A program made the translations under genes and the position numbers. Source: Gemmatimonadota bacterium (GTDB lineage Bacteria > Gemmatimonadota > Gemmatimonadetes > Longimicrobiales > RSA9). Taken from it: DNA of 64,000 bases. This document shows positions 2,248 to 22,632 of the stretch, one piece after another (position 1 is the stretch's first letter; the number at the start of each line of letters is the position of its first letter). The notes beneath the pieces were generated by a model. The model did not search any database and was not told the origin of the DNA. It worked only from the letters and a program-made list of their open reading frames with translations. The DNA lies in the NCBI GenBank assembly GCA_037388885.1, contig JARRJS010000038.1, positions 5,515 through 69,514 of the forward strand, written 5' to 3'.

Positions 2248-2257
2248 GCGAGAGCCG

Positions 2258-3667: not shown

Positions 3668-4155
3668 TGCGGGGCAAGATCGGAGTGGCGGGAACGCGCG
3701 TGGTGGTGACACTGTTCGTGGCCGGGCTGGCGGCATGCGTGCCGACGCTGCGCCGACCGGAGGTGCGGCTGGTGAGCGTGCATATCACCAGCCTCGGGTT
3801 GACGGGGGGCAACGTCCAGGTCCGGCTGCGGGTATACAACCCGAACGCGTTTGCCCTCGACGCCCAGGGCTTGAGCTACAACGTGGACCTGGCCGAAGAC
3901 TCGAGCGGCGATGCCTGGATGAGCCTGGCACAGGGCACGTACGACCAGGCCGTCCGGGTCGAGGCCGAGGACAGCGCGCAGGTCGAGATTCCCGTCGAGG
4001 TCAGCTACAGCGGACTCGGGGGTGCCTTCCGTTCTCTGCTGCAGCGAGGCAACTTTGATTATCGGATTCGTGGCAGCGTGGACCTGAAAGGGCCGATCAG
4101 AAAGAAGATTCCATACAGTCACAAGGGCATCGTGTCCATGAGTGGCGCCAGCTGA
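3664..4155 (+). CDS. LEA type 2 / WHy domain lipoprotein
   Basis: Lipobox LAAC, the VYNPNAF motif of the WHy domain, and a beta-rich body. Confidence 0.85.
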   Translation: MMRGKIGVAGTRVVVTLFVAGLAACVPTLRRPEVRLVSVHITSLGLTGGNVQVRLRVYNPNAFALDAQGLSYNVDLAEDSSGDAWMSLAQGTYDQAVRVEAEDSAQVEIPVEVSYSGLGGAFRSLLQRGNFDYRIRGSVDLKGPIRKKIPYSHKGIVSMSGAS

Positions 4156-4240
4156 TCGTGGGCACGTTCGCCGGCTGCACTTGTTGGCCGTGGCGTCCGG
4201 CGTCCAGGGAGAACAACGGAACGAGAAACAGGAGAAGCCC

Positions 4241-7145: not shown

Positions 7146-7148
7146 ACA

Positions 7149-7631
7149 GTGTCGCACCTGTTCGCGTTCTTCCGGGAGGAGGCAGCGGAACAGCTGTCCG
7201 GCATGCGAGCCAGCCTGCTGGATGGCGATGCGGAGGAGTTGTACCGGCAGGCGCGGGTGTTGCGCGGCAGTGCGCAGCTGGCTCGCCAGGAGGTCGTTCG
7301 GCAGCTGGCGGCCCGGATCGAAGCGACGGCGCAGCGGCTGGCGCACGGGGAGCTCCACTGGGATGCCGGCGTGCGCGCAGAGCTGAGCGACGCGACGGCC
7401 GAGCTCGAGCGCCGGGTCGGCAACGCACGGGAACAGCAGGATACGATGCAATCGGAGGATGACGTGGCGGAGCAGGAGGTGGTTCCCATCACCAAGTTGT
7501 CGTACGCGGGCGACCGGGCGCTGGATCGCGCCGTGGAGCTGCGTGCGCGGCTGGAGCAGCATGTCGCCGATCCCGATGGCGTCGAGCTGCTGGCTGAGCT
7601 GTACGACCTGATCGAGCTCGGCAGGACGTGA
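7149..7631 (+). CDS. HPt-like helical protein lacking the phosphoacceptor His
   Basis: FFREEAAEQL...LYRQARVLRGSA resembles the HPt consensus FxxEAxExL...HxLKGSA. RBS AAGGAGG upstream. Confidence 0.65.
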   Translation: MSHLFAFFREEAAEQLSGMRASLLDGDAEELYRQARVLRGSAQLARQEVVRQLAARIEATAQRLAHGELHWDAGVRAELSDATAELERRVGNAREQQDTMQSEDDVAEQEVVPITKLSYAGDRALDRAVELRARLEQHVADPDGVELLAELYDLIELGRT

Positions 7632-8704
7632 ACGAAACGACGGGCGCGCCGCAGGCCCGCGGTCCGGTCGGCGCTCGATTCGATTGGAAGGCCGTGCTTG
7701 GCGTGCTCGTCAGCATCGGCCTTCTGTATTACGCGTTGCGGGGTGTCGACTTCCACGATGTCGCCGGGCGGGTCTTGCTCGCCCATCCCCTCCTGCTCCT
7801 GGTGGCCGTAACCGTCAACTTCCTGGCGTTTCCCTTGCGCGCACTCCGCTGGCGGGCCCTGCTGGAGCCGGTGCGCGTGACAGGCTTCGGGAACCGGTTC
7901 GCCGCCACGTGCGTGGGCTTCATGGCCAACAACCTGCTGCCGGCCAGAGTCGGCGAGTTCGCCCGCGCCTACGCCCTGTCTCGCCTCGAGCCGGTGCGCA
8001 TGACGGCGTCCTTCGGATCTCTCGTTGTGGAACGGCTCTTCGACATCATCGTCGTCGTGGCCTCGCTGCTCCTCGCCATGACGCTGCCCGGCTTCCCCGC
8101 CATGAACGCCGCCATGCCGGAGGTGTGGCGCGCAGCCGAAACCATCCTCGCGCTGTTCGCCATCGGCTTCGTGGTCGTGCTGGTGATGGTCACGTGGCCC
8201 GAACGTTCGGTAGCGGTTTTCGAGACGGTTGCGCGGCGGACCTTGCCACACGCCGTGCGCCGCAAAGTCATCGACCTGCTGGAAGGCTTTCTCCAGGGGC
8301 TGACGGCCGTGCGGCAGCCGATCCTGGTCATCCGCATCGCTGTGTGGTCTGCGGCGGTCTGGGGCGTGAACGCCCTTTCCTTCTGGATCGGCTTCCACGC
8401 GTTCGGCATCGACGTGCCGTTCAGCGGTGCTCTGTTCCTCCAATCCATCATCGCGCTCGCCGTGTCGTTGCCGTCCGTTCCCGGGTTCTTCGGTATCTAC
8501 GAGGCCGCTGTGCGCGTCGGGCTGGTGGGCATCTGGGGTGTGGGGACTACGCCGGCCATCGCCTTCGCCCTCGGCTTCCACATCACCACGTTCATCCCCG
8601 TGACCCTGTTCGGTCTCTTCTACGTCTGGCGGCTCGGGCTCACGTGGTCGGAGGTTGGGCGGAGTGATGAGGCCGTAGATGAGGCGGTGGAGCGGAGCAC
8701 GTGA
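7628..8704 (+). CDS. Lysylphosphatidylglycerol synthase TM-domain / flippase-like membrane protein (UPF0104)
   Basis: RALRW, GFMANNLLPARVGEFAR, VVERLFD and PSVPGFFGIYE motifs; several TM segments. Confidence 0.9.
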   Translation: MNETTGAPQARGPVGARFDWKAVLGVLVSIGLLYYALRGVDFHDVAGRVLLAHPLLLLVAVTVNFLAFPLRALRWRALLEPVRVTGFGNRFAATCVGFMANNLLPARVGEFARAYALSRLEPVRMTASFGSLVVERLFDIIVVVASLLLAMTLPGFPAMNAAMPEVWRAAETILALFAIGFVVVLVMVTWPERSVAVFETVARRTLPHAVRRKVIDLLEGFLQGLTAVRQPILVIRIAVWSAAVWGVNALSFWIGFHAFGIDVPFSGALFLQSIIALAVSLPSVPGFFGIYEAAVRVGLVGIWGVGTTPAIAFALGFHITTFIPVTLFGLFYVWRLGLTWSEVGRSDEAVDEAVERST

Positions 8705-9570
8705 GCCAAGCGTCTTTGACGATGGAGGCTCCGGCGAAGATCAACCTGTGGCTTTCCGTGTTGGCCCGGGAAGCATCCGGGTATCACCAGATCGAGACCG
8801 TGTTCCACGCCCTGGACCTCGCGGACGAGTTGTCGGTCACGCTGGCGGACCGGGGATTCCAGCTCCGCGTGGAGGGTGGCGATGTCGGCCCTTCGGACGA
8901 CAACCTGGTTACCCGGGCGACGCGAGTTTTTCAGCAGAGATGCGGAGTCCCGGGTGGCGTGCAGTTTCGCCTGGTGAAGCGGATCCCTGCGGGCGCCGGC
9001 CTGGGCGGCGGTTCCAGCGATGCGGCCGCCGCACTGCTGGCCTTGAACACGCTGTGCCATGTGCCCCTCGTACGGGATGAGCTCATCGCGCTGGGTGCTA
9101 CCATCGGCAGCGATGTACCGTTCTTCCTGTGCGGCTCCGCCCATGCCCTTGCCTGGGGTCGCGGGCAGCGGCTTCTGCCCCTGCCACCCCTTCCGCAGCG
9201 CCCCGTTCTGCTCGTCGTGCCGCCCTTCGCCAGCCCGACGGCGGAAGCATATCGCCGTCTGTCCGACGTGGCCACGCGCCCGGCACCCGCCGGGGCGCTG
9301 AGCCACGCCGCACTCCTGCGCTGGGACGATGTGGCCGCCAGTGCCGGCAACGACTTCGAGCGCGTCGTACTTCCGGAACACCCGCCCCTGATGGCCGTTC
9401 GGGACGCGCTGAAAGCCGACGGTGCGGCGCCAGCACTCCTGACGGGCAGCGGGTCGGCCGTGTTCGGCGTCTTTCACGACGACGTCTCCCGCGAGCGCGC
9501 CGCGGCGGACATCGGTCGCGACTGGCCCGACTTCCAGCTCGTCCACACACGCACCGCAGGCGACTCATAA
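8701..9570 (+). CDS. ispE: 4-diphosphocytidyl-2-C-methyl-D-erythritol kinase
   Basis: APAKINL, KRIPAGAGLGGGSSDAAA, GSDVPFF, NDFE and TGSGS motifs. Confidence 0.96.
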   Translation: MSQASLTMEAPAKINLWLSVLAREASGYHQIETVFHALDLADELSVTLADRGFQLRVEGGDVGPSDDNLVTRATRVFQQRCGVPGGVQFRLVKRIPAGAGLGGGSSDAAAALLALNTLCHVPLVRDELIALGATIGSDVPFFLCGSAHALAWGRGQRLLPLPPLPQRPVLLVVPPFASPTAEAYRRLSDVATRPAPAGALSHAALLRWDDVAASAGNDFERVVLPEHPPLMAVRDALKADGAAPALLTGSGSAVFGVFHDDVSRERAAADIGRDWPDFQLVHTRTAGDS

Positions 9571-9582
9571 GACCGCCGCCGG

Positions 9583-9611
9583 TTGAAAGGCTTCGCTCCT
9601 CGGCGTAACTT
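9583..9611 (+). promoter_or_regulatory. sigma70-type promoter for tRNA-Gln
   Basis: TTGAAA-N17-TAACTT, 20 nt upstream of the tRNA. Confidence 0.65.
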
Positions 9612-9631
9612 CCCACGGCTTCCCGATACGG

Positions 9632-9704
9632 TCCCCCCTGGTGTAATCGGCAGTCACGCCGGCCTTTGGAGCCGGAAGTCCAGGTTCGAGCCCTGGGGGG
9701 GCCG
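9632..9704 (+). tRNA. tRNA-Gln (anticodon TTG)
   Basis: D arm TGGTGTAATCGGCAGTCACG; anticodon stem CCGGC/GCCGG with loop CT-TTG-GA; T arm CCAGG-TTCGAGC-CCTGG; usual position after ispE. The acceptor stem is imperfect at the top two pairs and no CCA is encoded. Confidence 0.9.
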
Positions 9705-9862
9705 GCTCGGGTCACCCCTCGGGCTTCATGGGCCGCGTTGTAGCGCCTCGGTTCATCCGCGTCTTCGCTCTGGTGCGTTCCACCACGACCGTCTATCTTG
9801 CAAACCGCTCCTGAGATGCCGGACGGCCACGTCCGGTGCCGACCCCTGGAGCATCCAAAGTC

Positions 9863-10114
9863 ATGGGATTCCTGCCGCCGGAGATTTCATTGCATTACGA
9901 AACACCAGATGGCACCCAGGCATCCATACCGGACTGCCTGGCGTTTAGCCTGGAACGGTACTTCGATTTCCGAAGGCCGGTGGAATTGCGTGCAACGTCC
10001 CACACAGCCGTGCTGGAACGCATCCGCCCCACAGTCAGTGAAGCGTGTCAAACCCACTTCACTGCATTCCTGCGGCAGCTCCGCTCCGAGGGGTCGCTCA
10101 CGCTGCATCGCTGA
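9863..10114 (+). CDS. Small hypothetical protein (83 aa)
   Basis: MGFLPPEISLHYETPDG...LRQLRSEGSLTLHR has globular-protein composition unlike the Arg/Pro/Gly shadow ORFs. GGAG at 9848 and a -10-like TATCTT at 9794. Confidence 0.6.
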   Translation: MGFLPPEISLHYETPDGTQASIPDCLAFSLERYFDFRRPVELRATSHTAVLERIRPTVSEACQTHFTAFLRQLRSEGSLTLHR

Positions 10115-10150
10115 GCAGTTCGCGGTGAGCGCGCGCGGCGCGCAATACAG

Positions 10151-10178
10151 TTGACACCCGGAACGTTTCCGATACCTT
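10151..10178 (+). promoter_or_regulatory. sigma70-type promoter of prs-rplY-pth
   Basis: TTGACA-N16-TACCTT. Confidence 0.65.
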
Positions 10179-10224
10179 ACAGGCCTGTTGCTCAGGCTAT
10201 TGGAAAACTCGCACCCGTACGTGC

Positions 10225-11175
10225 ATGTCGGATCATCAGGTCCGCGGACCGCTGCTGCTCATGGCCGGTACTGCGAATCGGCCGCTGGCGGAGGAAATCG
10301 CGGAATCCATCGGCATTCCACTCGGGGATGTGACGATCTCGCGCTTTGAGGACGGCGAGATCTTCGTTCGTATCAATCAGAACGCGCGGGGGCGCGACGC
10401 GTTCATCATCCAGCCGACGCCACCGCCGGCGGACAGCCTGATGGAGCTGCTGCTGATGGTGGACGCAGCGAAGCGGGCATCGGCGGCGCGGGTGACGGTG
10501 GTGACGCCGTATTACGGGTATGCGCGCCAGGATCGGAAAGACCAGCCGCGCGTGGCGATCGGTGCGAAGCTGGTCGCGAACCTGATGGAGGCGGCGGGCG
10601 CGGATCGGGTGCTTGGCATGGATTTTCATACGCACCAGATCCAGGGCTTTTTCGACGTGCCGGTGGATCACCTGTACGCGGCGCCGGTGCTGACCCGCTA
10701 TTTCCAGGATATGGACCTGGAAGACCCGGTCGTGGTGGCGCCGGATGTGGGTGCGGCCAAGATGGCGCGTGGCTTTGCCCGGCGGATCAACGCAAATTTT
10801 GCCATCATTGACAAGCGTCGTCCTGCGCAGAACGTGGCGGAGGTGCTGACGGTGGTGGGCGAAGTGGAGGGTCGGCCGTGCCTGATCGTGGACGACATGA
10901 TCGACACGGCGGGCACGATGACCAGCGTGATCGAGGCGCTCAAGGAGCGCGACGCGACGGAAATCTACGTGGCCGCGACGCACGCGCTGCTTTCGGGCCC
11001 CGCTGTCCAGCGACTGGAGGCGGCGCCCACGGAAGCCGTGGTGGTGACCAACACGCTGAACGTCCCGAAGGAGAAGCGGTTCCCGAAGCTGAAGGTGCTG
11101 TCCATCGCACAATTGCTGGCGCGAGCGATCCGCTACACGCACTCGAACGAATCAGTGAGCCAGCTGTTCGACTGA
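10225..11175 (+). CDS. prs: Ribose-phosphate pyrophosphokinase
   Basis: FEDGE, PYYGYARQDRK, QIQGFFD, VAPDVG, DDMIDTAGT and ATHALLS motifs. Confidence 0.98.
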   Translation: MSDHQVRGPLLLMAGTANRPLAEEIAESIGIPLGDVTISRFEDGEIFVRINQNARGRDAFIIQPTPPPADSLMELLLMVDAAKRASAARVTVVTPYYGYARQDRKDQPRVAIGAKLVANLMEAAGADRVLGMDFHTHQIQGFFDVPVDHLYAAPVLTRYFQDMDLEDPVVVAPDVGAAKMARGFARRINANFAIIDKRRPAQNVAEVLTVVGEVEGRPCLIVDDMIDTAGTMTSVIEALKERDATEIYVAATHALLSGPAVQRLEAAPTEAVVVTNTLNVPKEKRFPKLKVLSIAQLLARAIRYTHSNESVSQLFD

Positions 11176-11191
11176 AGGGAGAAGGGAAGGT

Positions 11192-11884
11192 ATGACGGAG
11201 ACGGTGACGTTGAAGGCCTTGCCGCGGAAGGAAAGGGGCAAGGGTCCCGCACGCAGGATGCGGCGGGATGGCCGGATTCCGGCCGTGGTATACGGGCGCA
11301 ACGAGGAGACGCGCTCCTTGAGCATCGATGCCCACGAGTTCGACAACCTGATGCGGCACGTATCGCTGGAGAACACCCTGATCGATCTGTCCATCAAGGG
11401 TAAGCGCGGCAAGATCCGGGCGCTGGTGGGCGAGGTGCAGGTGAACCCGGTGAAGGCGGAAGTGCTGCACGTGGATTTCCTCCAGATCCAGGCGGGCCAG
11501 AAAGTGCACGTGCAGGTCCCGATCCGCCTCGAGGGTGCAGCGGAAGGCGTCAAGGAAGGCGGCGTGTTGCAGCACGTGCTGCACGAGGTGGAAGTGCGCT
11601 GCTCCTCCGATGCGATCCCGGAAGAATTCACGGTGGACGTGTCCGCGCTGGTCATCGGCGACTCCATCCATATCTCCGACATGGCGTTTCCGGACGGTGT
11701 GGAAGTGCAGGTCGACGAGGATCGGACGGTGTGCCTGGTGGCGGCGCCGCGCGTGCTGGTGACCGAGGAGGAGGAAGAAGAAGCGGCCGAGTTGGAAGAG
11801 GGCATGGAGCCGGAGTTGGTCGGTCGGGAAGAAGGCGAGGAAGCGGAAGAGGCCGAGGACGAGGAGTCCAACGCGGAATCCTGA
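11192..11884 (+). CDS. rplY: 50S ribosomal protein L25 / Ctc (long form with acidic tail)
   Basis: GKGPARRMRRDGRIPAVVYG, HVDF and GVKEGG motifs; Glu-rich tail. Confidence 0.97.
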   Translation: MTETVTLKALPRKERGKGPARRMRRDGRIPAVVYGRNEETRSLSIDAHEFDNLMRHVSLENTLIDLSIKGKRGKIRALVGEVQVNPVKAEVLHVDFLQIQAGQKVHVQVPIRLEGAAEGVKEGGVLQHVLHEVEVRCSSDAIPEEFTVDVSALVIGDSIHISDMAFPDGVEVQVDEDRTVCLVAAPRVLVTEEEEEEAAELEEGMEPELVGREEGEEAEEAEDEESNAES

Positions 11885-12448
11885 GTGAAAGTCGTGTGTG
11901 GGTTGGGCAATCCTGGCCCGGAATACGACGCGACCCGGCACAACGTCGGGTGGTGGCTCGTGGACCGGATTGCCGCCGATTGGGGGCTCGGTCCGTTCCG
12001 AGGTGAAGCACAAGCGCTGATCGCGGCGGGCCAGGTGGGTCCGCATCACGTACTGCTGGTCAAACCTCGCACGTACATGAATCGCAGTGGGGCGGCGCTT
12101 GCCCCGTTCCGGCACGTCGACGGCTTCGATGTCACCCGCGACCTTCTCGTGGTGGTGGATGATGCCGTGCTGGACGTGGGACGCGTCCGGTTCCGGCCCG
12201 CAGGCAGCGCCGGCGGGCACAACGGCCTGAAGTCGGTGGAATCGGCGCTGGGCACTCGGGAGTACGCCCGTTTGCGGATCGGCGTGGGCACGCCGCCGGA
12301 TGGCGTGGACCTGGCCGATTGGGTGCTGTCCGGATTGCCGGCGGAGGAAGAGGAGCGAATCGTCGCGTTGCTGCCGGACCTGGCCGCGGGTGTGCGGCTC
12401 TGGTTGGACGAGGGGATTGAGGCGGCGATGAGTCGGTACAACAGATAG
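11885..12448 (+). CDS. pth: Peptidyl-tRNA hydrolase
   Basis: GLGNPGPEY..TRHNVG, KPRTYMNRSG, GGHNGLKS and RLRIGVG motifs. Confidence 0.97.
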   Translation: MKVVCGLGNPGPEYDATRHNVGWWLVDRIAADWGLGPFRGEAQALIAAGQVGPHHVLLVKPRTYMNRSGAALAPFRHVDGFDVTRDLLVVVDDAVLDVGRVRFRPAGSAGGHNGLKSVESALGTREYARLRIGVGTPPDGVDLADWVLSGLPAEEEERIVALLPDLAAGVRLWLDEGIEAAMSRYNR

Positions 12449-12478
12449 CAGACCAACTGACAAACAGCGGAGGCGTTC

Positions 12479-14608
12479 GTGACGGACTTACTGGCGTGGA
12501 CGCAAGGGGCCGCAGTGCTGGGGCTGGTGGGGTTGGCCGTAGCGCTGGGCCTGTTCTTGTATGTGAGGTCTCAACCGACCGGAACAGATTTGATGCGGGA
12601 GATTGGGAACGCCATCCACGAAGGTGCGATGGCGTTCTTGCGTCGGGAATACACGGTGCTGGCCGCGTTCGTGGTGGTGGTGGCGGTGCTGCTGGGTTTG
12701 GCCATCGGCCCCTACACCTCGTTCGCATACGTCACCGGCGCGCTGTGCTCGGTGCTGGCCGGCTTTTTCGGCATGTCCGCGGCCACGCGCGCGAACGTGC
12801 GCACGGCTGCGGCCGCGAAGGAGTCGGGGCAGGGGAAGGCACTACGGGTCGCGTTCTTCGGCGGGGCGGTGATGGGTCTGTCGGTGGGTGCCCTGGGACT
12901 GTTGGGCATCGGCATCTGGTATTTCGTGTTTGCGGCGCACGCGCAGGGTGAGGGGTTCCGCGCGTTCTCAGAGATCATCAGCGGGTTCGCCATGGGGGCC
13001 AGCTCCATCGCCTTGTTCGCGCGCGTGGCAGGCGGCGTCTATACGAAAGCTGCCGACGTAGGCGCGGACCTGGTGGGGAAGGTGGAGGCGGGCATTCCGG
13101 AGGATGATCCACGTAACCCGGGCGTGATCGCGGATAACGTCGGCGACAACGTGGGCGACGTCGCCGGCATGGGCGCCGACATTTTCGAGAGTTATGTCGG
13201 CAGCATCATCGCCACCATCGCTATCGGCGCAACGAGTGCGCTCTACGCGACGAACAGGGCCGAAGCCGTCGCTTTGCCCTTGCTTGCTGCCATGATCGGC
13301 CTGGTGGCCTCTCTGGTCGGCATTGCACTCATGAAGGTCTTGGAGCGTTCCAACGCGGCGGCTGCACTGCGCAACGTGACATTCATTGCCGCCATTTTGT
13401 TCCTGGTGGCCATGTACTTCGTCGTGCGCGGCATGGGCTTCGAGATCTTCGACCCGACGACGGCGCAATCCTATTCCGCCACAGGTCCGTTCTGGGCGAT
13501 CCTGTCCGGCACGATCGTGGGCATCGCGGTGGGCCTCATCACGGAGTTCTACACCGCGGCAAGCCCCATCCGGCGGATCGCAGACGCCAGCCTCACCGGG
13601 TCGGCCACCAACATCATCCACGGCCTGGCCGTCGGTATGGAATCCACGGCGCTACCCGTGTTGTTGATCGCGGCGGCCATCGGCGTCTCGTACCACTTCG
13701 CCGGACTCTATGGCATCGGCATCGCGGCCGTGGGCATGCTGGCCACCGTCGGCGTGACCATGTCGGTGGACGCTTACGGCCCGGTCGCGGACAACGCGGG
13801 CGGCATCTCGGAGATGAGCGGGTTGGGTCCGGAGGTCCGCAAGATCACGGACAGTCTGGACGCCATCGGCAACACGACGGCGGCTATCGGCAAGGGCTTC
13901 GCCATCGGCTCGGCGGCCCTGACCGCCCTGGCGCTGTTCAGCGCTTACGCAACCGCCGTGGGTCTGCACAACGGCGGCCTGGACATCATCAATCCGGAAG
14001 TGACCATCGGGCTGCTCATTGGCGGCACCATGCCGTTCTTCATCTCGGCGCTTACCATGACGGCCGTGGGCCGTGCGGCGGAAGGCATGGTGAACGAGGT
14101 GCGCCGGCAGTTCCGTGAGATCCCGGGTATCATGGAGGGCACCACCAAGCCGGACAGCGCACGCTGCGTCGATATCTCCACGCGCGCCGCGCTAAAGGAG
14201 ATGATCATTCCCGGCCTGACCGCGATCATCGTGCCGGTCGTCGTCGGCTACTTCAGCGTCCGCGCACTGGGCGGTCTGCTTGCCGGCGCCACCGTCACCG
14301 GCGTGCTCATGGCGCTCTTCATGGCGAACGCCGGCGGGGCGTGGGACAACGCCAAGAAGTTCATCGAGGGCGGTGAGCACGGCGGCAAGGGCAGCGAACC
14401 GCACAAGGCCGCCGTCGTGGGCGACACCGTGGGCGACCCGTTCAAGGACACGTCGGGTCCGTCGCTCAACATTCTCATCAAGCTGATGAGCGTCGTGTCG
14501 TTGGTGCTCTCTCCGTGGTTCGTGAAGGTACACCACCTGAACGTGCACGGTGATGTCACCGCGGTTGTCGAGCTCATCCGGACGGCCTTGCACGCGGTCT
14601 TCGGATAG
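12479..14608 (+). CDS. hppA: Membrane-bound ion-translocating pyrophosphatase, K+-dependent (probably Na+-PPase)
   Basis: [29 protein letters not shown] and [15 protein letters not shown] motifs. GNTTAA carries Ala, the K+-dependence signature. GADIFESY has the Glu typical of Na+-pumping enzymes. Confidence 0.95.
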
Positions 14609-14840
14609 GTGGCAGGTAGCAGGTAGCAGCTTGGAGCCAGCTGGGAGCGCGCCGCGTGGACGGTCCCCGGCGGGACCGCTGCCCGCGCGGCGTACGCCTT
14701 CGGGCTCCTGGGGCCCCGGCAGGATCGCTGCCGACGGGGCGCACGCCGGCGCGCCCGCCACGGCCCGTGCGGCGGTGCCGAAATGGCCGGCAGGCCCGCT
14801 GCGAGCATGGATCCGCTGGCATGCTGGCCTGCCACCTGCA
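14607..14840. repeat. Heptamer (GCAGGTN) inverted-repeat-bounded structured intergenic element, copy 1
   Basis: Left end AGGTGGCAGGTAGCAGGTAGCAGC and right end CCTGCCACCTGCA. Internal hairpins CGGTCCC/GGGACCG, GCCCCGGCAG/CTGCC..GGGGC and GGCAGGCC..AGCATG/CATGCT-GGCCTGCC. Confidence 0.6.
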
Positions 14841-14841
14841 A

Positions 14842-14869
14842 GCGGGTCGCGGTTGAGACCGCGACCCGC
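14842..14869. terminator. Perfect 12-bp hairpin (terminator-like or stabilising; no U-tract)
   Basis: GCGGGTCGCGGT-TGAG-ACCGCGACCCGC downstream of hppA. Confidence 0.55.
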
Positions 14870-14950
14870 GCCCTGTTGCCTGACCATGGCGGCTGCTATC
14901 GGATCGCCTGGCACGCGGCCTACACTCTTTGACCCCGACCCCTGACCTTC

Positions 14951-16156
14951 ATGGCCGATCTCAGCTTTGGCGCAGCCATCGAATTCGCCCGCGACCTGAT
15001 CCGCATTCCCAGCCCGCCCGGCGGAGAGGGCGAGGTAGGGGACCGCTTGCTGCGGGAGTTGAATCGGCTGGGGTTCGACCGGGCGTGGCGTGACGATGTG
15101 GGCAACGTGATCGGCGTGGTGGAGGGCCGGGGCGAGGCGCGGCCGGTCATGCTGAGCTGCCACCTGGACATCGTGGATCCCGGCGACCAGAACGCGTGGG
15201 AACACTCGCCTTACGGCGCCGACCTGGCGGACGGCTACCTGCACGGCCGGGGCGCCATGGACATCAAGGGGCCGCTGGCTCTCCAGACTTACGCCGCCGC
15301 CCATTTCGTCGGCGACCGGCCGCCGGGCGACGTGATCGTCGCGCACACGGTGCTGGAGGAGCGGGGCGGCTGGGGCATGGAGCACCTGCTGCAATCGGGC
15401 GCCGTGAAACCGGGTGCGGCCATCGTGGGGGAATCGACGCACGGCGACGTCACCATCGGACACCGCGGTCGCGCCGAGATCGTCGTCTCCCTGCACGGCC
15501 TCGCGGGGCACGCCAGCGCGCCCGAGCGTGCGGCGAACGCCCTGGACGGCCTACCCGCCGTGCTGCAGGCCGTGCGTGACTTTGCCGCGACGGAGTTGAC
15601 GGCCGAGGATCCCGTTCTGGGTCGCGCCACCCTGGTCGCCACCCAGGTGGACGTACTGCCTGACAGCCGCAACGTGATCCCTGATCTCGTGCACGTCTAT
15701 CTCGACTGGCGCGTCCTGCCGGGCTTTACGCCCGCGTCGTCGGCCGACGCCGTGCGCACGTTCCTGGACGAACGCCTCCGGCTGGAGGACGATCGGCTGC
15801 GCGTGGAGGTCGCGTGCGCCACCGAACGGCAGCACACCTGCACCGGCCTGGAGGAGGATCGCGAGCTGTTCACGCCGGGGTTCCTGTTGCCCGACGACCA
15901 CGCCGTCGTCCGTGCAGCCGCCCAGGCCGTCGGCCGGGCCACCGGTCATGCGCCCGCCGTCCGGCCCTGGGCGTTCGCCACAGACGGAGGCCATATCTGT
16001 GGCGTACACGGCATCCCGACCATCGGCTATGCGCCCGGCGAGGAACGACACGCCCACACCAACATCGAGCGCCTCAGCCTGGCCGCCGCAGAAGAATCGT
16101 ATTTCGTCTATCCCCAGTTGATCAGCGCCCTCTTCTCGGTATTGCCGAAAGCCTGA
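14951..16156 (+). CDS. M20/M25/M40 family metallo-hydrolase (ArgE/DapE/YgeY-like)
   Basis: SCHLDIV, HGRGAMDIKG, LEERGG, VGEST, FATDG and HAH metal-ligand motifs. Confidence 0.92.
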   Translation: MADLSFGAAIEFARDLIRIPSPPGGEGEVGDRLLRELNRLGFDRAWRDDVGNVIGVVEGRGEARPVMLSCHLDIVDPGDQNAWEHSPYGADLADGYLHGRGAMDIKGPLALQTYAAAHFVGDRPPGDVIVAHTVLEERGGWGMEHLLQSGAVKPGAAIVGESTHGDVTIGHRGRAEIVVSLHGLAGHASAPERAANALDGLPAVLQAVRDFAATELTAEDPVLGRATLVATQVDVLPDSRNVIPDLVHVYLDWRVLPGFTPASSADAVRTFLDERLRLEDDRLRVEVACATERQHTCTGLEEDRELFTPGFLLPDDHAVVRAAAQAVGRATGHAPAVRPWAFATDGGHICGVHGIPTIGYAPGEERHAHTNIERLSLAAAEESYFVYPQLISALFSVLPKA

Positions 16157-16310: not shown

Positions 16311-16820
16311 CTACGATCCGTGAATCCGCTTGGTGAGTGCGGGCACTACGCCCATGGCCCGCGCCCAGTGCGCGAGCTGTCCGCGGTGGTGCTCTTCGTG
16401 GGCGATGCCGTGGTTCATCCAGGCGAGGCGTGTGCCCAGTTTGCCGTCGAAGCGACGGATGTGCTGCAGCATGGCCAGCTCGCCGGCGTCGCGGATCCTG
16501 TGCAGACCCTCTTCGCCCGTGCTCCGCAGCAGCTCTGCGAGCCCGTCCCGACTGGCCGACTCCGGTAGCAAACCTGCGTGCTCGCGGATATGCTCGGGAT
16601 AGCCCTGGCGCGTGAAGTCGCCAACAGGGTTGCTGAGCTCACCGGCCATCACCTGACCCGATGCCACGATGTGCAACACCAGCTCGGTGACGGTACGCGC
16701 GCCGGGTGCGGGGCTGAAGTCCATCTTGTCGGCGGGCATGTTCTCGAGCTCTGCCACCACGCCTGCCCGGGTGTAGTCCCAGGCTTCCAGCGCTTCATCG
16801 AGCAACGTCTTGTATTCCAT
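16311..16820 (-). CDS. DinB family protein
   Basis: FSPAPGARTVTELVLHI and HEEHHRGQL provide the His triad of the DinB fold. GGAG RBS upstream. Confidence 0.9.
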   Translation of the reverse strand: MEYKTLLDEALEAWDYTRAGVVAELENMPADKMDFSPAPGARTVTELVLHIVASGQVMAGELSNPVGDFTRQGYPEHIREHAGLLPESASRDGLAELLRSTGEEGLHRIRDAGELAMLQHIRRFDGKLGTRLAWMNHGIAHEEHHRGQLAHWARAMGVVPALTKRIHGS

Positions 16821-16962
16821 GAGACCATCTCCGGCGTGGGGCGCAGCGCGCAGCCCGCTCGGGAGCGGTATCCGGACGGGATTGCGGCTACACGAGGTTG
16901 CACGAATAGGCTACGTTTCGTGGTCGTACTGTCGCAATGCGTGTACCAACCGGCGAGACGCA

Positions 16963-18078
16963 GTGCCGAATCTGAAGCTGGGGATCGTAGGACTGCCGAA
17001 TGTCGGCAAGTCGACGCTTTTCAATGCCCTCACCGCCGCGGGGGCTGCGGCGGAGAACTATCCGTTCTGCACGGTAGACCCGAACGTCGGCGTCGTGGAT
17101 GTTCCGGATCCGCGCCTGGATCGGCTCTACGACTGTGTCCAGCCGAAAGCGCGCGTGCCGGCGACGGTCTCGTTCGTGGATATCGCCGGCCTGGTGGAGG
17201 GTGCGTCCCGGGGCGAGGGTCTGGGCAACCAGTTCCTGGCACACATCCGGGGCGTGGACGCCGTCGTGCATGTCGTCCGCTGCTTCGAAGATGCAGACGT
17301 GGCCCACGTGCTGGGCACCGTCGATCCCGTGCGGGACCGCGGCATCATCAGCACCGAGCTGGCGTTGTCGGACCTCCAGTCGGTGGAGCAGCGCCTGGAG
17401 CGCGTGGAGAAGGTGGCTCGCAGTGGCGGGCGCGAGGCGCAGACCGAGGACCGGCTGTTGCGCCAGCTGCACGACGTCCTGTCGGAAGGGAAGCCGGCGC
17501 GCCTGATCGAGGCGCACAGCGAGGAGGAGGCGGGCCTGCTGAGCAGCTACCAGCTGCTGACAGCCAAGCCAGCCCTGTACGTGGCCAATGTCACGGAGGC
17601 GGAGTTCCTGGGCGACGCTCATGAGAGTGCACACGTCGCCGCCTTGCGCGCGGCCGTCGACGGGGATGACGAGCCCGCCGAGGTCGTCGAGCTGGCCGCA
17701 CGCCTCGAAGCGGAGCTGCTTGCTCTGGACGACGACGAGCGGGCGCAGTACCTGGCTGAGCTGGGCCTCGAAGAACCGGGCCTGTATCGTCTCATCCGGG
17801 CCGGGTACCATTTGCTCGGCCTTATCAGCTTCTTCACCACCGGGCCGAAGGAGGTCCGCGCCTGGACCATTCGCGCAGGCACGCGCGCCGCGCAGGCCGC
17901 TGGCGAGATCCACAGTGACTTCGAGCGCGGCTTCATCCGTGCCGAGACCATCGCCTGGGACGAGTACCTGGCCATGGGCTCGGAGAAGGCGGCGAGGGAG
18001 CAGGGTCGCATCCGCAGCGAAGGGCGGGACTACGTCGTTCAGGACGGCGATGTCATCCTCTTTCGCTTCAACGTTTGA
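16963..18078 (+). CDS. ychF: Redox-regulated ATPase YchF
   Basis: [49 protein letters not shown] and the [12 protein letters not shown]-terminus. Confidence 0.98.
18061..18074 (+). repeat. attL core (last codons of ychF)
   Basis: TTTCGCTTCAACGT followed by TTGA, giving FRFNV*. Confidence 0.85.
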
Positions 18079-18151
18079 TGACCCGTGAACGTCCAGCAAT
18101 AGCGCTGAATTCGTGCGCTGGTGTGTCCGATTGTGTCCCCGCGCCCGGTTT

Positions 18152-18430
18152 TCACGACGCGCGCTCCCCGGCCTGCATGACACGCAGCACGGCTTCCGGA
18201 TCGGCCCGCTGGTAGACCTCTTCGAGCGCCGTGGGCTCAACCCAACCACCGGCCGCGGCGATGTCCTAGGCGGCCAATCCCGTGCGCTCCTGCGCCCACA
18301 GGCGCCGGAACATGTGCCAACCGCCCCGGTCGACGTGGGGCAGCTTCGCCGGCTTATCCGCCCGACGCAGGCAGTAACCCGCCATGAGTTTGTCGAGTGG
18401 CTTGCCGCCACCGGCGTGTGCAAATCCCCG
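18152..18430 (-). pseudogene. Tyrosine recombinase/integrase C-terminal remnant
   Basis: Minus strand reads GKPLDKLMAGYCLRRADKPAKLPHVDRGGWHMFRRLWAQERTGLAA*DIAAAGGWVEPTALEEVYQRADPEAVLRVMQ, with HxxR, GGW and the catalytic Tyr. In-frame TAG at 18266-18268; the N-terminal part is missing. Confidence 0.85.
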
Positions 18431-18460
18431 CAAGCACAGCGCGAGGTCCCGAGACGAATC

Positions 18461-18997
18461 TTACCAAGCAGGCAAGGGGATCTTTAAAGCGAGACCGAGA
18501 CCGACAGCCGGCGGACTCAACGGCTTCGAGACCGGCTCCCATCGGCTGTACCTGATGATCGGCCAGAGGACCAGGCCGAGGGGTAGTCCCACGACGGCCC
18601 CTGCAAGCGCGCCGACGGCGAGGCCGGCCACGGGACCCGGGCAGAGAAACTCACCGTTACAGGACGCCCCGCCGACGACCCCGACCACGGCGCCGGTCAC
18701 GGACATGACGCTCATGGTGATCAGGAGCGTCCGGCGGCTCGTGTATGATTCAGTCTTTTCCTCGATCGTGGACACGTCGGCCAGGGCGTAGCTTATAGGC
18801 TCGAGGCCGTTCGGGGACTCAAACGTTATGCTGTCGCTCGTGATCGCGAGGAGCACCCCCATCCGTCGAAATCCGTCTTGGTGAGTGATCCGGACGGTCT
18901 GACCAGGCGTGAGGCGCGTGAGCACCTGGCCGTGAAGGCCGGTGGCGAAGAGCGATCCGAGCCCTGCCAGAGCGAGGGCCAGCAGCGTGCGCGAAAT
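18461..18997 (-). CDS. Exported glycine-zipper membrane protein, paralog A (178 aa, ATT start)
   Basis: The frame stays open upstream of the listed GTG to ATT at 18997, behind a GGAGG RBS. It is exactly colinear with 19871-20407 (both 537 nt). Confidence 0.8.
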   Translation of the reverse strand: MSRTLLALALAGLGSLFATGLHGQVLTRLTPGQTVRITHQDGFRRMGVLLAITSDSITFESPNGLEPISYALADVSTIEEKTESYTSRRTLLITMSVMSVTGAVVGVVGGASCNGEFLCPGPVAGLAVGALAGAVVGLPLGLVLWPIIRYSRWEPVSKPLSPPAVGLGLALKIPLPAW

Positions 18998-19210
18998 GGG
19001 ACCTCCCGGGTTGAAGTGAGGCTGGTCGTCTATCCCATTAGGTAGGTAAACCGCTTCAAGGCAGGATCAATTGGGCGAACGAATCGGCATCGAGGACGGG
19101 GCCGTTTGACACGTGTTGTGAAGTTCCCGGCTTCCCAGGCAATTACCTTAATGAACGGCCAACGTGTGACCAGCCTCAACCCCACATGGCCCACCTCCCC
19201 GGAGGCCCGC

Positions 19211-19779
19211 ATGTCTGGAACCTTCCTCGCACGCATCGCGTTGTTCCTGTCCGTCGCGGCAAATCTGCGACGAACCGCACTACCGCTGGACGGAGAAGAC
19301 GGACCCAAGTCTCTCGACGAATACGGCCCAGCGTGCGACCGTCTGGGCGATGTTGAACCAGTGGAACCCTTTGGAATTCACGGGCTCGGACGATTACGGG
19401 TGCGCCGACCGGGAGGGGCTCGAGAAACGGGTTTGCAGCGTCCTCGGTTGGGTCCGGCGGGTCAAGACGGGCGAATCGGACGGGACCGGCACATCGAGAT
19501 CACGTCGCGGCGCAGCAGTCCCGTCGGCGAGTGCGTCGTCGTCGAGATCCCGCCGCCTGAAAACAGCGCCCTATGCGATATCGCCCGGACATCCCTCAAC
19601 GACCACATCGCGGTCGGAGGCGCTACGATGGATTCAGGCGGGACTTGAGCACGCCCGTGCGCATCCGGATCATCGGAGCTGCATTCTTCGACGGCGAGCA
19701 CCGGGGAGGTGCCAACCACAGGGATGAGACGCGCGGCGATCATGGCCGGCGCAACAGCTCCGTCCGCACCCTATGGGAG
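19211..19779 (+). pseudogene. Secreted protein (probable OB-fold) broken by three frameshifts and a 3' truncation
   Basis: GGAGG-ATG. Segments MSGTFLARIALFLSVAA / QICDEPHYRWTEKTD...VRRVKTGESDG / DRHIEITS...CVVVEIPPP...DSGG / DLSTPVRIRIIGAAFFDGEH...HGRRNSSVRTLWE lie in different frames, with shifts at about 19260, 19484 and 19642. Confidence 0.7.
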
Positions 19780-19870
19780 AGTGGGGCTTGGGCGCGGGCA
19801 CCCACAGGAGTCGATGAGACGCATGTGTTTGAGGCGCCCCAGGGGCGTGTCCCTGGTCCCAAGAAAAGCT

Positions 19871-20407
19871 TCACCAAGAAGGCAACGGGATCTTGACTGA
19901 GAGACCGAGACCGAGGCGCGGGTGACTCTCCGGCTTCCCGACCCGCTCCCACCTGCTGTACCTGATGATCGGCCAGAGGACCAGGCCGAAAGGCAATCCG
20001 AGGGCCGCGCCCCCGAGTACGCCAGCGGCCAGGCCCCCTGCGGGACCCGGGCAAAGAAACTCGCCGTCACAGGACACCCCGGCGATGGTGCCGAGTAAGC
20101 CGCCGGCCAGGGCCGTGACGCCCATGGTGATCAGGATCGTCCGGGCGCTTGTGTACGATCCGGCCTTCTCCTCGATCGTGGATAGGTCGTCCAGGTCGTA
20201 GGTCCAACGCCCCAGTCGGTCCTTGATCTCGATCGTCCCGTGGTCAGTCGATATGGAAAGGATCTCGCCCGTGCGGTGGCGGCCCGTCTCGTCCGTTATC
20301 CGGACGGTCTGACCAGGCGTGAGGCGCGTGGGCACCTGGCCGTGAAGGCCGGTGGCGAAGAGTGATCCGAGCCCTGCCATGGCAAAGACCAGCACCGTGC
20401 GCGACAT
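19871..20407 (-). CDS. Exported glycine-zipper membrane protein, paralog B (178 aa)
   Basis: Signal peptide (…ATGLHG|Q), small beta domain GQTVRIT...STIEEK, hydrophobic hairpin with SCDGEFLC loop and GxxxG repeats, C-terminus GLGLSVKIPLPSW. RBS GAGGAGG. Confidence 0.85.
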   Translation of the reverse strand: MSRTVLVFAMAGLGSLFATGLHGQVPTRLTPGQTVRITDETGRHRTGEILSISTDHGTIEIKDRLGRWTYDLDDLSTIEEKAGSYTSARTILITMGVTALAGGLLGTIAGVSCDGEFLCPGPAGGLAAGVLGGAALGLPFGLVLWPIIRYSRWERVGKPESHPRLGLGLSVKIPLPSW

Positions 20408-20729
20408 GGGACCTCCTCGGGTGGAGTAAGATAGGATCTTCGATGGTTGCCGGATGCCGGCACCTGCCCGGCACGTAGGTCCATCTTCCCGAGTAGGTAG
20501 GCAAACCGCGTCAAGGCAGAGTCAAGCAATAGCACCGCGCGGGGCCGCATCCTGACCCATCCTGCCATTCCCGCCCGCCGCACGTCGCGCAAACTTGGAG
20601 CTCACCACCACCCGGAGGCGAACGTGGGCCCACCTGGAGCTGCGCGACCTGCCCGTTCAGGGCGGAACCCGGCGGACCGGATTTCGCAGCAGACGGCGCC
20701 GCGTGCCGCATCGGGCTTCCGTCCGGATG

Positions 20730-20743
20730 TTTCGCTTCAACGT
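20730..20743 (+). repeat. attR core (displaced original ychF 3' end)
   Basis: TTTCGCTTCAACGT followed by GTAG also encodes FRFNV*. Confidence 0.85.
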
Positions 20744-20765
20744 GTAGGGCGCCGGCGCGTTGCAC

Positions 20766-20953
20766 CGGCTGCAGGTGGCAGGTATCAGGTCCACGTTCGC
20801 GGCGTGCGCCGGTTCCCGGCCAGGGCGCCACCCTTCGCGCGGTAAGCTTTTCCGTCTTCGCCTTGCGACGAATGCGTACGCCGGTGACCGGGCGCTCAAC
20901 GCCCAGCCCGCTTATCCAACAAGCACAGAGCTGCCACCTGCGACCTGCAGCCG
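20766..20953. repeat. Heptamer inverted-repeat-bounded element, copy 2 (188 bp)
   Basis: CGGCTGCAGGTGGCAGGTATCAG (20766-20788) matches the reverse complement of 20931-20953 (CGGCTGCAGGTCGCAGGTGGCAG) at 20/23 positions. Confidence 0.7.
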
Positions 20954-21024
20954 CCGCGGCGGAGCCGGGGCGGCGCCCTGTGAGCCGCGGCGGCTGTATA
21001 CGCTGCGAATCCGCGTGCCCCGGC

Positions 21025-21053
21025 TTTACGAAAACCGCCCGGAACGATATACT
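21025..21053 (+). promoter_or_regulatory. sigma70-type promoter of the rpsF operon
   Basis: TTTACG-N17-TATACT. Confidence 0.7.
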
Positions 21054-21066
21054 TACAGGCTTTCTA

Positions 21067-21112
21067 TCCTGCCCCGCGCAGCGACGCGGGGCCGAACGAG
21101 ACCGGGGGAGGA
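21067..21112 (+). promoter_or_regulatory. S6:S18 ribosomal-protein leader (autoregulatory RNA)
   Basis: CCT-GCCCCGCG-loop-CGCGGGGC-CG...GGGGGAGG: a stem followed by the conserved CCG and an RBS pairable with the 5' CCT, directly before rpsF. Confidence 0.75.
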
Positions 21113-21117
21113 AACGC

Positions 21118-21489
21118 GTGAAGGATTACGAGATCGTCTACATCTTCGACTCGATGCTGGACGAGGAGAAGATTCGCACCAAGCTGGACGGATACCACCA
21201 GCTGATCACCGGGGACGGCGGCGAGATCACGGCCGTCGATTTCTGGGGCAAGCGTCAGCTCGCCTACCCGATCGCCAAGAAAGCTGCGGGCAACTACGTC
21301 GTCGTGCAGTTCCGCACGGGCGCGGAGGCGCTACCGGAGTTCGAACGGCGTCTGAAGCTGGACGATGAGCTGTTGCGCTACCTCATCGTGCTGAGCGAGG
21401 GAGAGCCGACGGCGCCCATGTCGCTGTCGACCCGGGAGCCGTCGTCCAGAGACGACGACGAGGACGACGACGATGAGGAGGAAGACTGA
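21118..21489 (+). CDS. rpsF: 30S ribosomal protein S6
   Basis: MKDYEIVYI, WGKRQLAYPI and ERRLKLDDELLRYL motifs; acidic tail. Confidence 0.97.
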   Translation: MKDYEIVYIFDSMLDEEKIRTKLDGYHQLITGDGGEITAVDFWGKRQLAYPIAKKAAGNYVVVQFRTGAEALPEFERRLKLDDELLRYLIVLSEGEPTAPMSLSTREPSSRDDDEDDDDEEED

Positions 21490-21710
21490 TGGCGGGCCGA
21501 CACAAGAACTGCCCGTTGTGTGAATCGGGCATCCGGCGCATCAACTACAAGGACGAAAGCACGCTTTCGCGGTTCATCACCGACGCCGGCAAGATCCTGC
21601 CGCGTCGTCTGACGGGCATGTGTGCACGGCATCAGCGTCAGGTGGGCACGGCGATCAAGCGGGCGCGCTATCTGGCCCTGGTGGGGTACGCGAACACGGG
21701 CGAGGGCTGA
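21489..21710 (+). CDS. rpsR: 30S ribosomal protein S18 (Zn-binding C+ type)
   Basis: CPLC, INYKD, GKILPRRLTGMCARHQR and AIKRAR motifs. Confidence 0.97.
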   Translation: MAGRHKNCPLCESGIRRINYKDESTLSRFITDAGKILPRRLTGMCARHQRQVGTAIKRARYLALVGYANTGEG

Positions 21711-21714
21711 GTAC

Positions 21715-22632
21715 GTGACGACTGGCGGACGCTGGCCGGCGGTGGTCGGCCTGTCGCTGGTCGTGATCATGCTGTCGGTAGTGCAACCCGCGCTACTGGT
21801 GTTCGTGCCGCTGGGTTTGCTGTTGGTCGCCATCCCTTCCCGGCCACTCCGACTCCACCTGGTGGGGCTCGGCATGCTGCTGCTGGCATTGACGCTGATC
21901 GGTGCGCACGCCGACATGTTGTGGTATGCGCAGCGAGGCTGGGTGCTGGTGCTGGGGGCCTGGTTCGTGGGAATGGTGGTGACGTGGCCGCGGGCGAGTT
22001 TCATCTCCCGGGCGTTGGCGGCGGTGACGGGGTCGGTCGGTACGGCTGTGGTGCTGTTCGTGGTTCGACGGGGCGGCTGGCAGCAGCTGGACTGGACCAT
22101 CGGCCAGAGCTACCGGCGAGAAGCGGCGACGGTGGCCGTTCAGATGAACGCGGGCAGCCTGGGGAAGGAGTTTTCCGGCGCGATGATGCAGGCGGCGGCG
22201 TTGCAGGCGCGCTTGTACCCGGCGCTCCTGGCGCTGGCATCGGTGGCTGCCCTGGGCCTGGCATGGTGGGCGTACCGGCGATTGGTGGCGCGCGAGTCGC
22301 CGCTGGGCTTGCTGCGTGATTTTCGGTTCAGCGACGAACTCGTCTGGGTGCTGATCGCCGGCCTGGCGCTGGTGGTTGCGCCCTTGGGCGACGTGGCGGC
22401 GCGTGCCGGCGTGAACGTGCTGGCGTTCATGGTTGCGCTCTACGCGCTTCGCGGATTGGCAGTGCTGCTGGCGCTGGTGGGCATGCCGAGCATCGTTGGA
22501 ACGATCGTGGCCGTGGTGGTCGCGCTGCTGCTCTACCCGGTCGTGATGACGGGGGCGGTAGTGCTGGGAATCACGGATACATGGCTCGACCTCCGGACCC
22601 GCATGCGGTCCGGTACGGAGCAAGGGGAGTGA
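21715..22632 (+). CDS. YybS/DUF2232 family membrane protein
   Basis: Multi-TM protein with FRFSDELVW, YALRGLAV and LGITDTWLDLR; sits between rpsR and rplI. Confidence 0.85.
   Translation: MTTGGRWPAVVGLSLVVIMLSVVQPALLVFVPLGLLLVAIPSRPLRLHLVGLGMLLLALTLIGAHADMLWYAQRGWVLVLGAWFVGMVVTWPRASFISRALAAVTGSVGTAVVLFVVRRGGWQQLDWTIGQSYRREAATVAVQMNAGSLGKEFSGAMMQAAALQARLYPALLALASVAALGLAWWAYRRLVARESPLGLLRDFRFSDELVWVLIAGLALVVAPLGDVAARAGVNVLAFMVALYALRGLAVLLALVGMPSIVGTIVAVVVALLLYPVVMTGAVVLGITDTWLDLRTRMRSGTEQGE

Follow-up and report, generated by a model that had tools for sequence, protein, structure and literature searches.

Probable remnant of a ychF-targeting tyrosine-integrase element, and its relatives, in the Longimicrobiales (Gemmatimonadota)

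The window analysed here, a stretch of 64,000 nucleotides (nt) with a G + C content of approximately 0.65, is part of contig C38, one of the 420 contigs of a 4.74-Mb Longimicrobiales assembly that is 85.65% complete. Downstream of the gene ychF, this window contains an interval (18075–20743) that is very probably the decayed remnant of a site-specific integrative element, the tyrosine integrase of which targeted the last codons of ychF. For the annotation of this region, the remnant would account for a gap of 3 kb in the ychF-rpsF-rpsR neighbourhood, which is tight otherwise, and would identify the genes inside as decaying cargo.

The 14-bp sequence TTTCGCTTCAACGT occurs exactly twice in the window, both times on the forward strand (starting at 18061 and 20730, respectively), and not a single match was obtained in 100 dinucleotide-preserving shuffles, even when one mismatch was permitted. 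The left copy is located in frame within the end of ychF, which reads TTT CGC TTC AAC GTT TGA, and the right copy reads TTT CGC TTC AAC GTG TAG, so that both encode FRFNV followed by a stop codon. An earlier note on this DNA, which was based on the sequence alone, had already pointed out this repeat and its coding properties, and was correct on both counts. The last base of ychF and its stop codon (18075–18078), which lie to the right of the repeat, would have been supplied by the element, and the G TAG that follows the right copy (20744–20747) would represent the original end of the gene.

Next to the left copy, a fragment of an integrase gene is located on the reverse strand (Table 1). A comparison of this fragment with 41 related genomes found matches in 16 of them, and the best matches were to the C-terminal ends of open frames with lengths of 459, 425, and 430 amino acids (aa; E values of 7.3e-25, 5.5e-23, and 5.2e-21, respectively). 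These full-length relatives pass the Pfam family PF00589 (Phage_integrase) with 33.3, 42.4, and 43.4 bits, as compared with a cut-off of 27.1 bits. The fragment corresponds to residues 340–418 of the 418-aa integrase of genome G005 (52% identity) and thus fills about 85 columns at the end of the alignment, where it retains the blocks R-G-G-W-H-x-x-R-R, G-x-W, and Y-Q-x-x-D that are invariant in the 407–418-aa integrases of its relatives. The conserved columns in these blocks are those which we take to be the catalytic residues (H-x-x-R, the following H/W, and the nucleophilic tyrosine). A complete enzyme is not encoded, as the catalytic domain is partial, the N-terminal DNA-binding domains are gone, and the frame is interrupted by a TAG codon. 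The fragment is a true piece of a tyrosine-recombinase gene that comprises about one fifth of the gene and is dead.

An evenly drawn, order-wide sample of 401 genomes was queried with the 418-aa integrase of G005, and 32 genomes matched at E ≤ 1e-40. Among the 30 loci examined, the integrase gene adjoined the 3' end of ychF, in convergent orientation, in five (G005, G145, G394, G103, and G101) and was located next to a tRNA gene in 16 (Cys, Gly, Arg, Asn, Val, Ile, Thr, Pro); the remaining nine had no assignable target, with all labels set by hand and tRNA genes counted only within approximately 300 bp. In G005, ychF ends with …FRFNV, and the stop codon of the full 418-aa integrase gene on the opposite strand follows 65 bp further on. 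G145 has a full-length integrase frame (409 aa matched, 78% identity), and G394 has a frame of about 400 aa on a contig that ends 153 bp past it on the element side. A contig end interrupts the integrase of G103; that of G101, which belongs to an island of 13.1 kb, is truncated to a frame of 178 aa. A metagenome scan with the clade alignment retrieved 17 loci, six of which have ychF beside the integrase or a stub of it; these represent four distinct cases, as L095 and L101 have a common junction and so have L096 and L097. With five other genomes and four distinct metagenome loci, the ychF-targeting island family that the earlier note had proposed for this lineage does exist, and it includes the predicted longer members with a full integrase (G005, G145, and the contig-cut G394). 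The term “minimal,” which had been applied to the element in the window, holds in a relative sense only, because smaller relics were found (1.5 kb in L097 and 590 bp in G101). No other ychF-linked case came from a phylum-wide sample, in which 8 of 401 genomes, seven of them from the order, gave matches at E ≤ 1e-60. A viral contig collection contained no relative of the integrase, and a scan of genome contigs with the G005 integrase returned that locus alone.

The architecture of these loci is conserved. All ten distinct ychF-linked loci, including the window, contain a tandem pair of 7–8-nt units that starts 44–47 nt past the final codon of ychF and extends almost to the stop codon of the integrase gene; the second unit is found at +57–58 after ychF in the five other genomes and in four of four distinct metagenome loci. 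In the window this pair is TGTGTCC-GAT-TGTGTCC, and the pattern TGTGTCC-N2-5-TGTGTCC has a single occurrence both in the window (0 of 100 shuffles) and in the assembly of 4.74 Mb as a whole. The suggestion that these repeats may be arm sites had been made before, and the conservation at the same offset in the ychF-linked relatives lends it support. The motif is mostly TGTGTCC, with the variants TGTGCCC, TGCGCCC/GTGCCCC, TGTGTCT, and TGTGCGCC, and such variation between integrases would be expected for cognate arm-type binding sites. The tandem pair is therefore regarded as a putative arm-type binding site of the integrase. Where the far ends of the elements could be located (G005, G101, L095, and L097), they consist of a second copy of the ychF end with a second site pair approximately 115–125 nt to its left. 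Two of the metagenome loci, L095 (25-bp repeat, element of 3.84 kb) and L097 (12-bp repeat, 1.5 kb), retain both arm-site pairs together with a C-terminal integrase stub, and in L096/L097 the target is a second, paralogous type of ychF that is 40% identical to the gene in the window. Since the identity blocks of all attachment (att) repeats include CGSTTCAACGT, strand exchange would take place within this sequence.

Unoccupied loci were identified in related genomes and in metagenomes, as the earlier note had anticipated. The stretches downstream of ychF were fetched from 21 relatives, 13 of which contain rpsR, and in 12 of these 13 rpsR starts at a distance of 454–1301 bp from the end of ychF, as compared with 3414 bp in the window. 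The corresponding distance in G002 is 2799 bp and is occupied by ordinary genes without an integrase. Of the other eight stretches, two reach a contig end within 151 bp, one is that of G005, and five (G013, G028, G032, G034, and G038) contain no rpsR within 3.5–6 kb; rpsR is located on another contig in G013, G028, and G034. G002 and the four of these five stretches that were covered by a scan for PF00589 (all except G038) were ruled out as islands of the family, as they have no integrase near ychF and represent ordinary differences in gene order.

The stretch 17600–21400 was also compared, at 90% likeness, with the Logan contigs of four metagenome runs (X1–X4) that stem from four studies and sampled marshes or salt marshes, where X1 may be the sample from which the window was assembled and parts of the stretch that are uncovered in X2–X4 carry no weight. 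In two of the four runs, from two studies, a joint from 18060 to 20730 was found that skips 2669 bp and has 14 letters that fit either side (X2, depth 3.3 with a shorter side of 30 letters; X3, depth 3.82 with a shorter side of 59 letters). This joint is the predicted empty site, in which the right copy directly follows the ychF codon …CTC; it is also the attB-type half of the excised junctions for which the earlier note had suggested to search, the other half, an attP circle joint, not being listed. The filled left junction is spanned by contigs in X1, X2, and X3. One X3 contig with a depth of 3.82 carries a synonymous substitution in a third codon position (18030 C to T, Asp to Asp), and because its depth and the distance from its end agree with those of the empty-site contig, the two appear to be identical, which points to a co-occurring sister strain. 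The presence or absence of the relic is still polymorphic among co-occurring strains. In addition, contigs leave the sequence of the window at 18610, 20651, 20746, and 20848 into unrelated DNA, and these loose ends of 44–255 letters, which recur in X2–X4, suggest further structural alleles or paralogous copies in these communities. A second joint (18038 to 21127) in X4 was set aside, as its side of 23 letters is too short. Contigs of two relatives (L028, G003:C21; L034, G011:C124) end 99–151 bp after ychF; as breaks of this kind in an assembly are frequently a sign of repeated or variable DNA, the locus may be occupied or polymorphic there too.

Integration into the 3' ends of genes with regeneration of the gene is textbook knowledge, and the interval very probably arose in this way. 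An integrase would have recombined the attP core with the last codons of ychF, the core CGSTTCAACGT lying within the end that codes for FRFNV. As the element would have brought its own copy of the end codons plus a stop (GTT TGA), YchF would have remained unchanged and the gene intact, and the original end (GTG TAG) would have been displaced 2.67 kb downstream. Later decay would have removed about 80% of the integrase gene and the site pair of the right arm, and would have introduced a nonsense codon and cargo frameshifts. The traces of decay themselves are evident: apart from the loss of most of the integrase gene and the nonsense codon in its stub, one cargo gene contains at least three frameshifts, memA has lost its start codon, and the site pair of the P arm is gone. 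The element in the window cannot move by itself. In this respect its earlier description as immobile was accurate; the locus, in contrast, is polymorphic in nature.

Several observations weigh against this reading. The 98-aa frame of the integrase remnant matched none of the Pfam and NCBIfam families at E ≤ 1, and the earlier note, which had proposed the remnant, had itself named a missing match of the 18152–18430 translation to tyrosine-recombinase profiles as evidence against its proposal. The frame is too short for a PF00589 profile match, and its identity stands because it matches the C-termini of proteins that belong to this family. According to the alignment, the right-arm tandem site pair of the relatives is missing from the window, and the right arm aligns to their P arms in patches only; for these reasons, the right copy could derive from an element that is older than, or different from, the one that gave rise to the left end. 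In G005, the stop variants have the opposite arrangement to those of the window, with GTGTAG at ychF itself and GTTTGA at the far copy, so that the element-supplied and the native stop codon are assigned by position and not by a conserved element sequence. The attR of G005, although an exact 14-bp copy, is located on a different contig from its attL. Finally, the empty-site contigs are short (30 and 59 letters on the shorter side), they were matched at 90% likeness with the sequence between marked “not known,” and a circular (attP) back-joint was not listed in any of the four runs, whose Logan contigs drop rare forms.

The asymmetry of the two ends would also fit two integrations in succession (tandem accretion) and a later internal deletion, with a younger left end and an older right end from a different element. 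Accretion at att sites is described, in an excerpt of PMC5704250, for integrative and mobilizable elements (IMEs) and cis-mobilizable elements (CIMEs), G101 has three cores in a row (the 13.1-kb island plus a 590-bp relic), and the truncation point of the integrase in the window is the start of an internal duplication with an offset of 1410 bp. Such a history nevertheless appears rather unlikely, as the window contains neither a third core nor a chimeric internal att site (up to one mismatch) and the simple decay of one element accounts for the same facts, including the perfect site pair in the left arm and its lack in the right one. A remnant that is still mobile non-autonomously, being excised and reinserted by a clade integrase in trans, is in our view unlikely. 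In that case the empty-site contigs would be excision products, and the intact state of both 14-bp cores and of the left-arm site pair, the empty site that is precise to the repeat and occurs alongside the filled form in the same runs, the small elements with truncated integrases and both arms (L095 and L097), and the CIMEs described in the same excerpt as moving with a related element (PMC5704250) would all agree with it. However, the right-arm site pair is missing, no circle joint is listed, the synonymous difference at 18030 in X3 fits a separate strain better than a fresh excision, and tblastn at E ≤ 10 detected no other clade integrase in the 85.65%-complete assembly, where only the remnant and chance-level matches were returned.

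The empty allele could alternatively have arisen without any recombinase, through replication slippage or short-homology recombination between the 14-bp repeats. Short direct repeats can promote precise deletions, and the joint contains the 14 common letters expected, but deletions between 14-bp repeats that are 2.7 kb apart should be rare, and a never-occupied attB or excision by an integrase would give the same junction, between which the data do not discriminate; we regard deletion as very unlikely. It is hardly conceivable that the repeat is due to mere chance or to a local duplication of the end of ychF in which site-specific recombination had no part. Short repeats are indeed common in GC-rich DNA, and 33 families of imperfect direct repeats were counted in 5 kb. 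Against this stand the shuffled sequences without a match, the in-frame position that restores the protein end, the repeats at the same position in four other elements, the adjoining integrase remnant and site pair, and the precise joint in two runs. A further and improbable idea concerns all small elements at the ychF end (the 2.67-kb interval in the window, L095 with 3.84 kb, L097 with 1.5 kb, and the 590-bp unit of G101), which would be hitchhikers moved in trans and not dead relics. All four have kept their cores, and most of them also arm sites and an integrase stub. If this were true, the full-length ychF-specific integrases of the larger islands, one of which bears a complete CRISPR-Cas locus, would be the movers, and the empty and filled alleles side by side in the marsh samples would reflect ongoing excision and reintegration.

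The relationships of the integrases were analysed in a maximum-likelihood tree of 30 proteins and the fragment from the window. All six ychF-linked rows formed a clade of 12 rows together with three tRNA-Cys rows and three unassigned ones, with a support of 100 in the Shimodaira–Hasegawa-like approximate likelihood ratio test (SH-aLRT). The ychF label requires two changes on this tree, a number that was reached in none of 500 label shuffles. The element in the window belongs to a Longimicrobiales (Gemmatimonadota) integrase clade that adjoins a tRNA-Cys-targeting clade and has the arm architecture in common with it; the exact placement of the fragment is unsure, as it forms a long branch with 23% of the columns filled. 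One of the tRNA-Ile rows (L020) stems from a genome marked as unpublished, and no conclusion hinges on this row. The tandem pair after the integrase stop codon is also present in tRNA-targeting relatives, and the tRNA-Cys group (L055, L056, L059, and L089) has the same P' layout as the ychF clade, where an ACAACGA-TTACG box is followed by the tandem pair. The T-loop sequence CGGTTCGAA of the tRNA resembles the ychF end CGGTTCAAC. Based on this similarity in sequence, a target switch within the clade, from the T-loop of tRNA-Cys (CGGTTCGAA) to the end of ychF (CGGTTCAAC), is possible.

In most of its features, the element resembles the tyrosine-integrase islands known from the 3' ends of tRNA and protein genes: the integrase gene lies beside the target, the repeats at the att cores duplicate the gene end and leave the product unchanged, arm-type repeats are found near the integrase gene, and occupied as well as empty sites exist among relatives. 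What sets it apart from the described islands is its target, the last five codons of ychF. The full-text literature searched yielded no description of a tyrosine integrase at the 3' end of ychF, although supplementary target-gene tables of island surveys may list it. According to the excerpt of PMC5704250, CIMEs are decayed integrative and conjugative elements (ICEs) or IMEs that have kept attL and attR. With its integration gene lost, both 14-bp cores exact, and the right-arm site pair missing, the element in the window agrees with this definition, and the lack of transfer genes among the scanned frames and the relic that stands in tandem with a larger island in G101 are further similarities. 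The missing right-arm pair and the lack of a clade donor element in this assembly are differences. The element fits the description of a CIME-like relic, for which mobilisation in trans is putative.

ychF has been recognised before as an attachment site. Pipolins and other islands with large serine recombinases integrate at this gene in Actinomycetota, as stated in part of the text of PMC11551731 / bioRxiv 10.1101/2024.05.22.595293. These islands have the host gene in common with the element described here, but the latter encoded a tyrosine instead of a serine recombinase, occurs in another phylum, and has neither a resolvase/recombinase nor a polymerase domain in its scanned frames. The use of ychF by serine and tyrosine recombinases is convergent and no sign of relatedness, and the conserved 3' end of the gene appears to be a convergent landing pad for two recombinase classes. 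In Streptococcus pneumoniae, sites of prophages and satellite prophages adjoin ychF, and an effect of a defective prophage on ychF expression has been reported (available portions of PMC8637289 and PMC10383233); unlike the element in the window, these are, according to the same portions, intergenic, located upstream of ychF, phage-derived, and from an unrelated phylum. The family adds a defined attachment site for tyrosine integrases, namely the last codons of a near-universal GTPase/ATPase gene, and its anatomy with respect to core, two arm-site pairs, and integrase position is resolved. The source lineage, the Longimicrobiales, is almost uncultured and its mobile elements are poorly known. 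Since the mechanism is the classical one, existing concepts remain unchanged.

The cargo of the intact relatives is unlike that of the window. The island of G101 (L079 reverse strand, 1396–14510), which is bounded by ychF-end cores with an attR of 14–15 bp at 13.1 kb (L079, G101:C17), contains a complete locus of clustered regularly interspaced short palindromic repeats (CRISPR) and Cas proteins. This locus comprises Cas_GSU0053, Cas_GSU0054, Cas3, a Cas4-Cas1 fusion, and Cas2, together with an array in which about 27 repeats recur at intervals of about 73 nt. With an entire CRISPR-Cas locus as the cargo of one member, the family moves defence genes. In G101, the end of ychF is also present in a third copy, which has 18 bp in common with the gene's own end and is located 590 bp past the attR and just before rpsF. 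The 590-bp unit in between (L079 reverse strand, ~14496–15102) contains only a small hydrophobic open reading frame and a hairpin, and looks like the relic of an earlier integration (tandem accretion). Ten proteins of the G005 island include a sigma-70 factor, a helix-turn-helix protein, and two other unrelated domains, and no phage or conjugation hallmark was detected among these ten. On the ychF contig of G005, no core copy was found within 17.5 kb, nor in the next 20 kb. A 256-bp repeat with 98.4% identity joins the contig with attR and rpsF (L045, 152–407) to the island (L024, 16726–16981), and a weaker third copy of it exists (L046, 19362–19441). The two contigs may be linked through this repeat, judging from its sequence; it probably explains the break in the assembly and suggests an element size of about 15 kb.

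At approximately 20–30 nt to the left of every attR core, a conserved block was observed that resembles the core in direct orientation (L045, L079, L095, L097, and 20699–20714 in the window), for example TTCCGGTTCAGGC in G005 and GCCGCATCGGGC in the window. This block is possibly an extra, putative binding site of the integrase. A degenerate site pair near 20643–20662 was considered as the right-arm pair of the window and was not retained.

Table 1. Features of the ychF-rpsR region in the window, in order of position.
Feature	Position	Strand	Remarks
ychF (redox-regulated ATPase YchF)	16963–18078	+	TIGR00092, 1.7e-140 from residues at 16972; PF06071 (YchF C-terminal domain), 2.4e-38
Left core copy (attL core)	18061–18074	+	exact repeat; identity blocks at the same position in G005, G101, L095, L097
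Tandem TGTGTCC-GAT-TGTGTCC, putative arm-type integrase-binding pair, P' arm	18122–18138	+	units 18122–18128 and 18132–18138; unique in window and assembly
Tyrosine-integrase remnant	18152–18448	-	frame 18155–18448; in-frame TAG 18266–18268; stop TGA 18152–18154; homology begins at ~18418
Repeat unit A	18445–19070		copy A' at 19855–20525; offset 1410–1455 bp; 77–89% identity
memA	18461–18997	-	memB paralogue, 64% identity (query residues 2–178; C38 23978–24508)
Pseudogene of a secreted hypothetical protein of ~200 aa	~19190–19790	+	spread over three frames; at least 3 frameshifts; C-terminus lost
memB	19871–20407	-	intact, 178 aa; signal-peptide-like N-terminus and glycine-rich membrane segment
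Right (P) arm remnant	20660–20729	+	keeps blocks common to the P arms of relatives: AACCCGGCGGA, GCCGCATCGGG
Right core copy (attR core)	20730–20743	+	exact repeat; followed by G TAG (20744–20747)
Native ychF-rpsF spacer	20748–21118	+	final ~50 nt before rpsF (from ~21045, TATACT… leader) conserved in relatives
rpsF	21119–21489		
rpsR	21489–21710		

Inside the interval, repeat unit A starts at the point where the homology to integrases stops, and memA and memB are located within the duplicated units A and A', respectively. In memA, the codon aligned to the ATG of memB is ATT (18995–18997), so that the gene is possibly dead or weakly translated, as far as its sequence can tell. The memB family is tiny: a library of 5.8 billion clusters contains five such proteins, two of them from this window, and 3 of the 72 other genomes searched from the family gave weak matches. 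Matches to glycine-zipper families in Pfam were below threshold and were obtained only for the paralogue memA. Intact homologues of the pseudogene have lengths of 188–225 aa and are 53–68% identical to its 73-aa piece; the sequences P0006 and P0009 match pieces of it in the other two frames, and no Pfam family was assigned to it. None of the scanned frames of the interval contains a Pfam family above the cut-off, and resolvase/serine-recombinase and DNA-polymerase domains were thus not seen among them. The base composition of the interval is unremarkable (G + C content of 0.61–0.68 vs. 0.63–0.72 in the flanks). A scan of 16500–22000 against Rfam (E ≤ 1) gave two rows at chance level, far under the gathering scores, and the site is thus not explained by an RNA gene or a tRNA.

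The start codon of ychF was set to the GTG at 16963 by comparison with the ychF of G005. A second ychF-like gene that is 41% identical is present in the same assembly (G000:C6:19672-20709). The only genome of the same genus that was searched (G001:C79; 96% complete) contains the second type of ychF and lacks the type found in the window at E ≤ 1e-60; gene loss, two paralogue lineages, or a binning issue of contig C38 could be the cause of this difference. At the other end of the region, blastn matched the window at 21068–21166 to L031, L045, L048, and L049; tblastx matches of the interval to the loci of relatives were dominated by GC-rich noise and were disregarded. The native spacer between ychF and rpsF contains a 26-nt inverted repeat (20766–20791 and 20928–20953) with 85% complementarity and 136 nt between the arms, which, like a perfect inverted repeat of 13 nt near it, has no match in Rfam.

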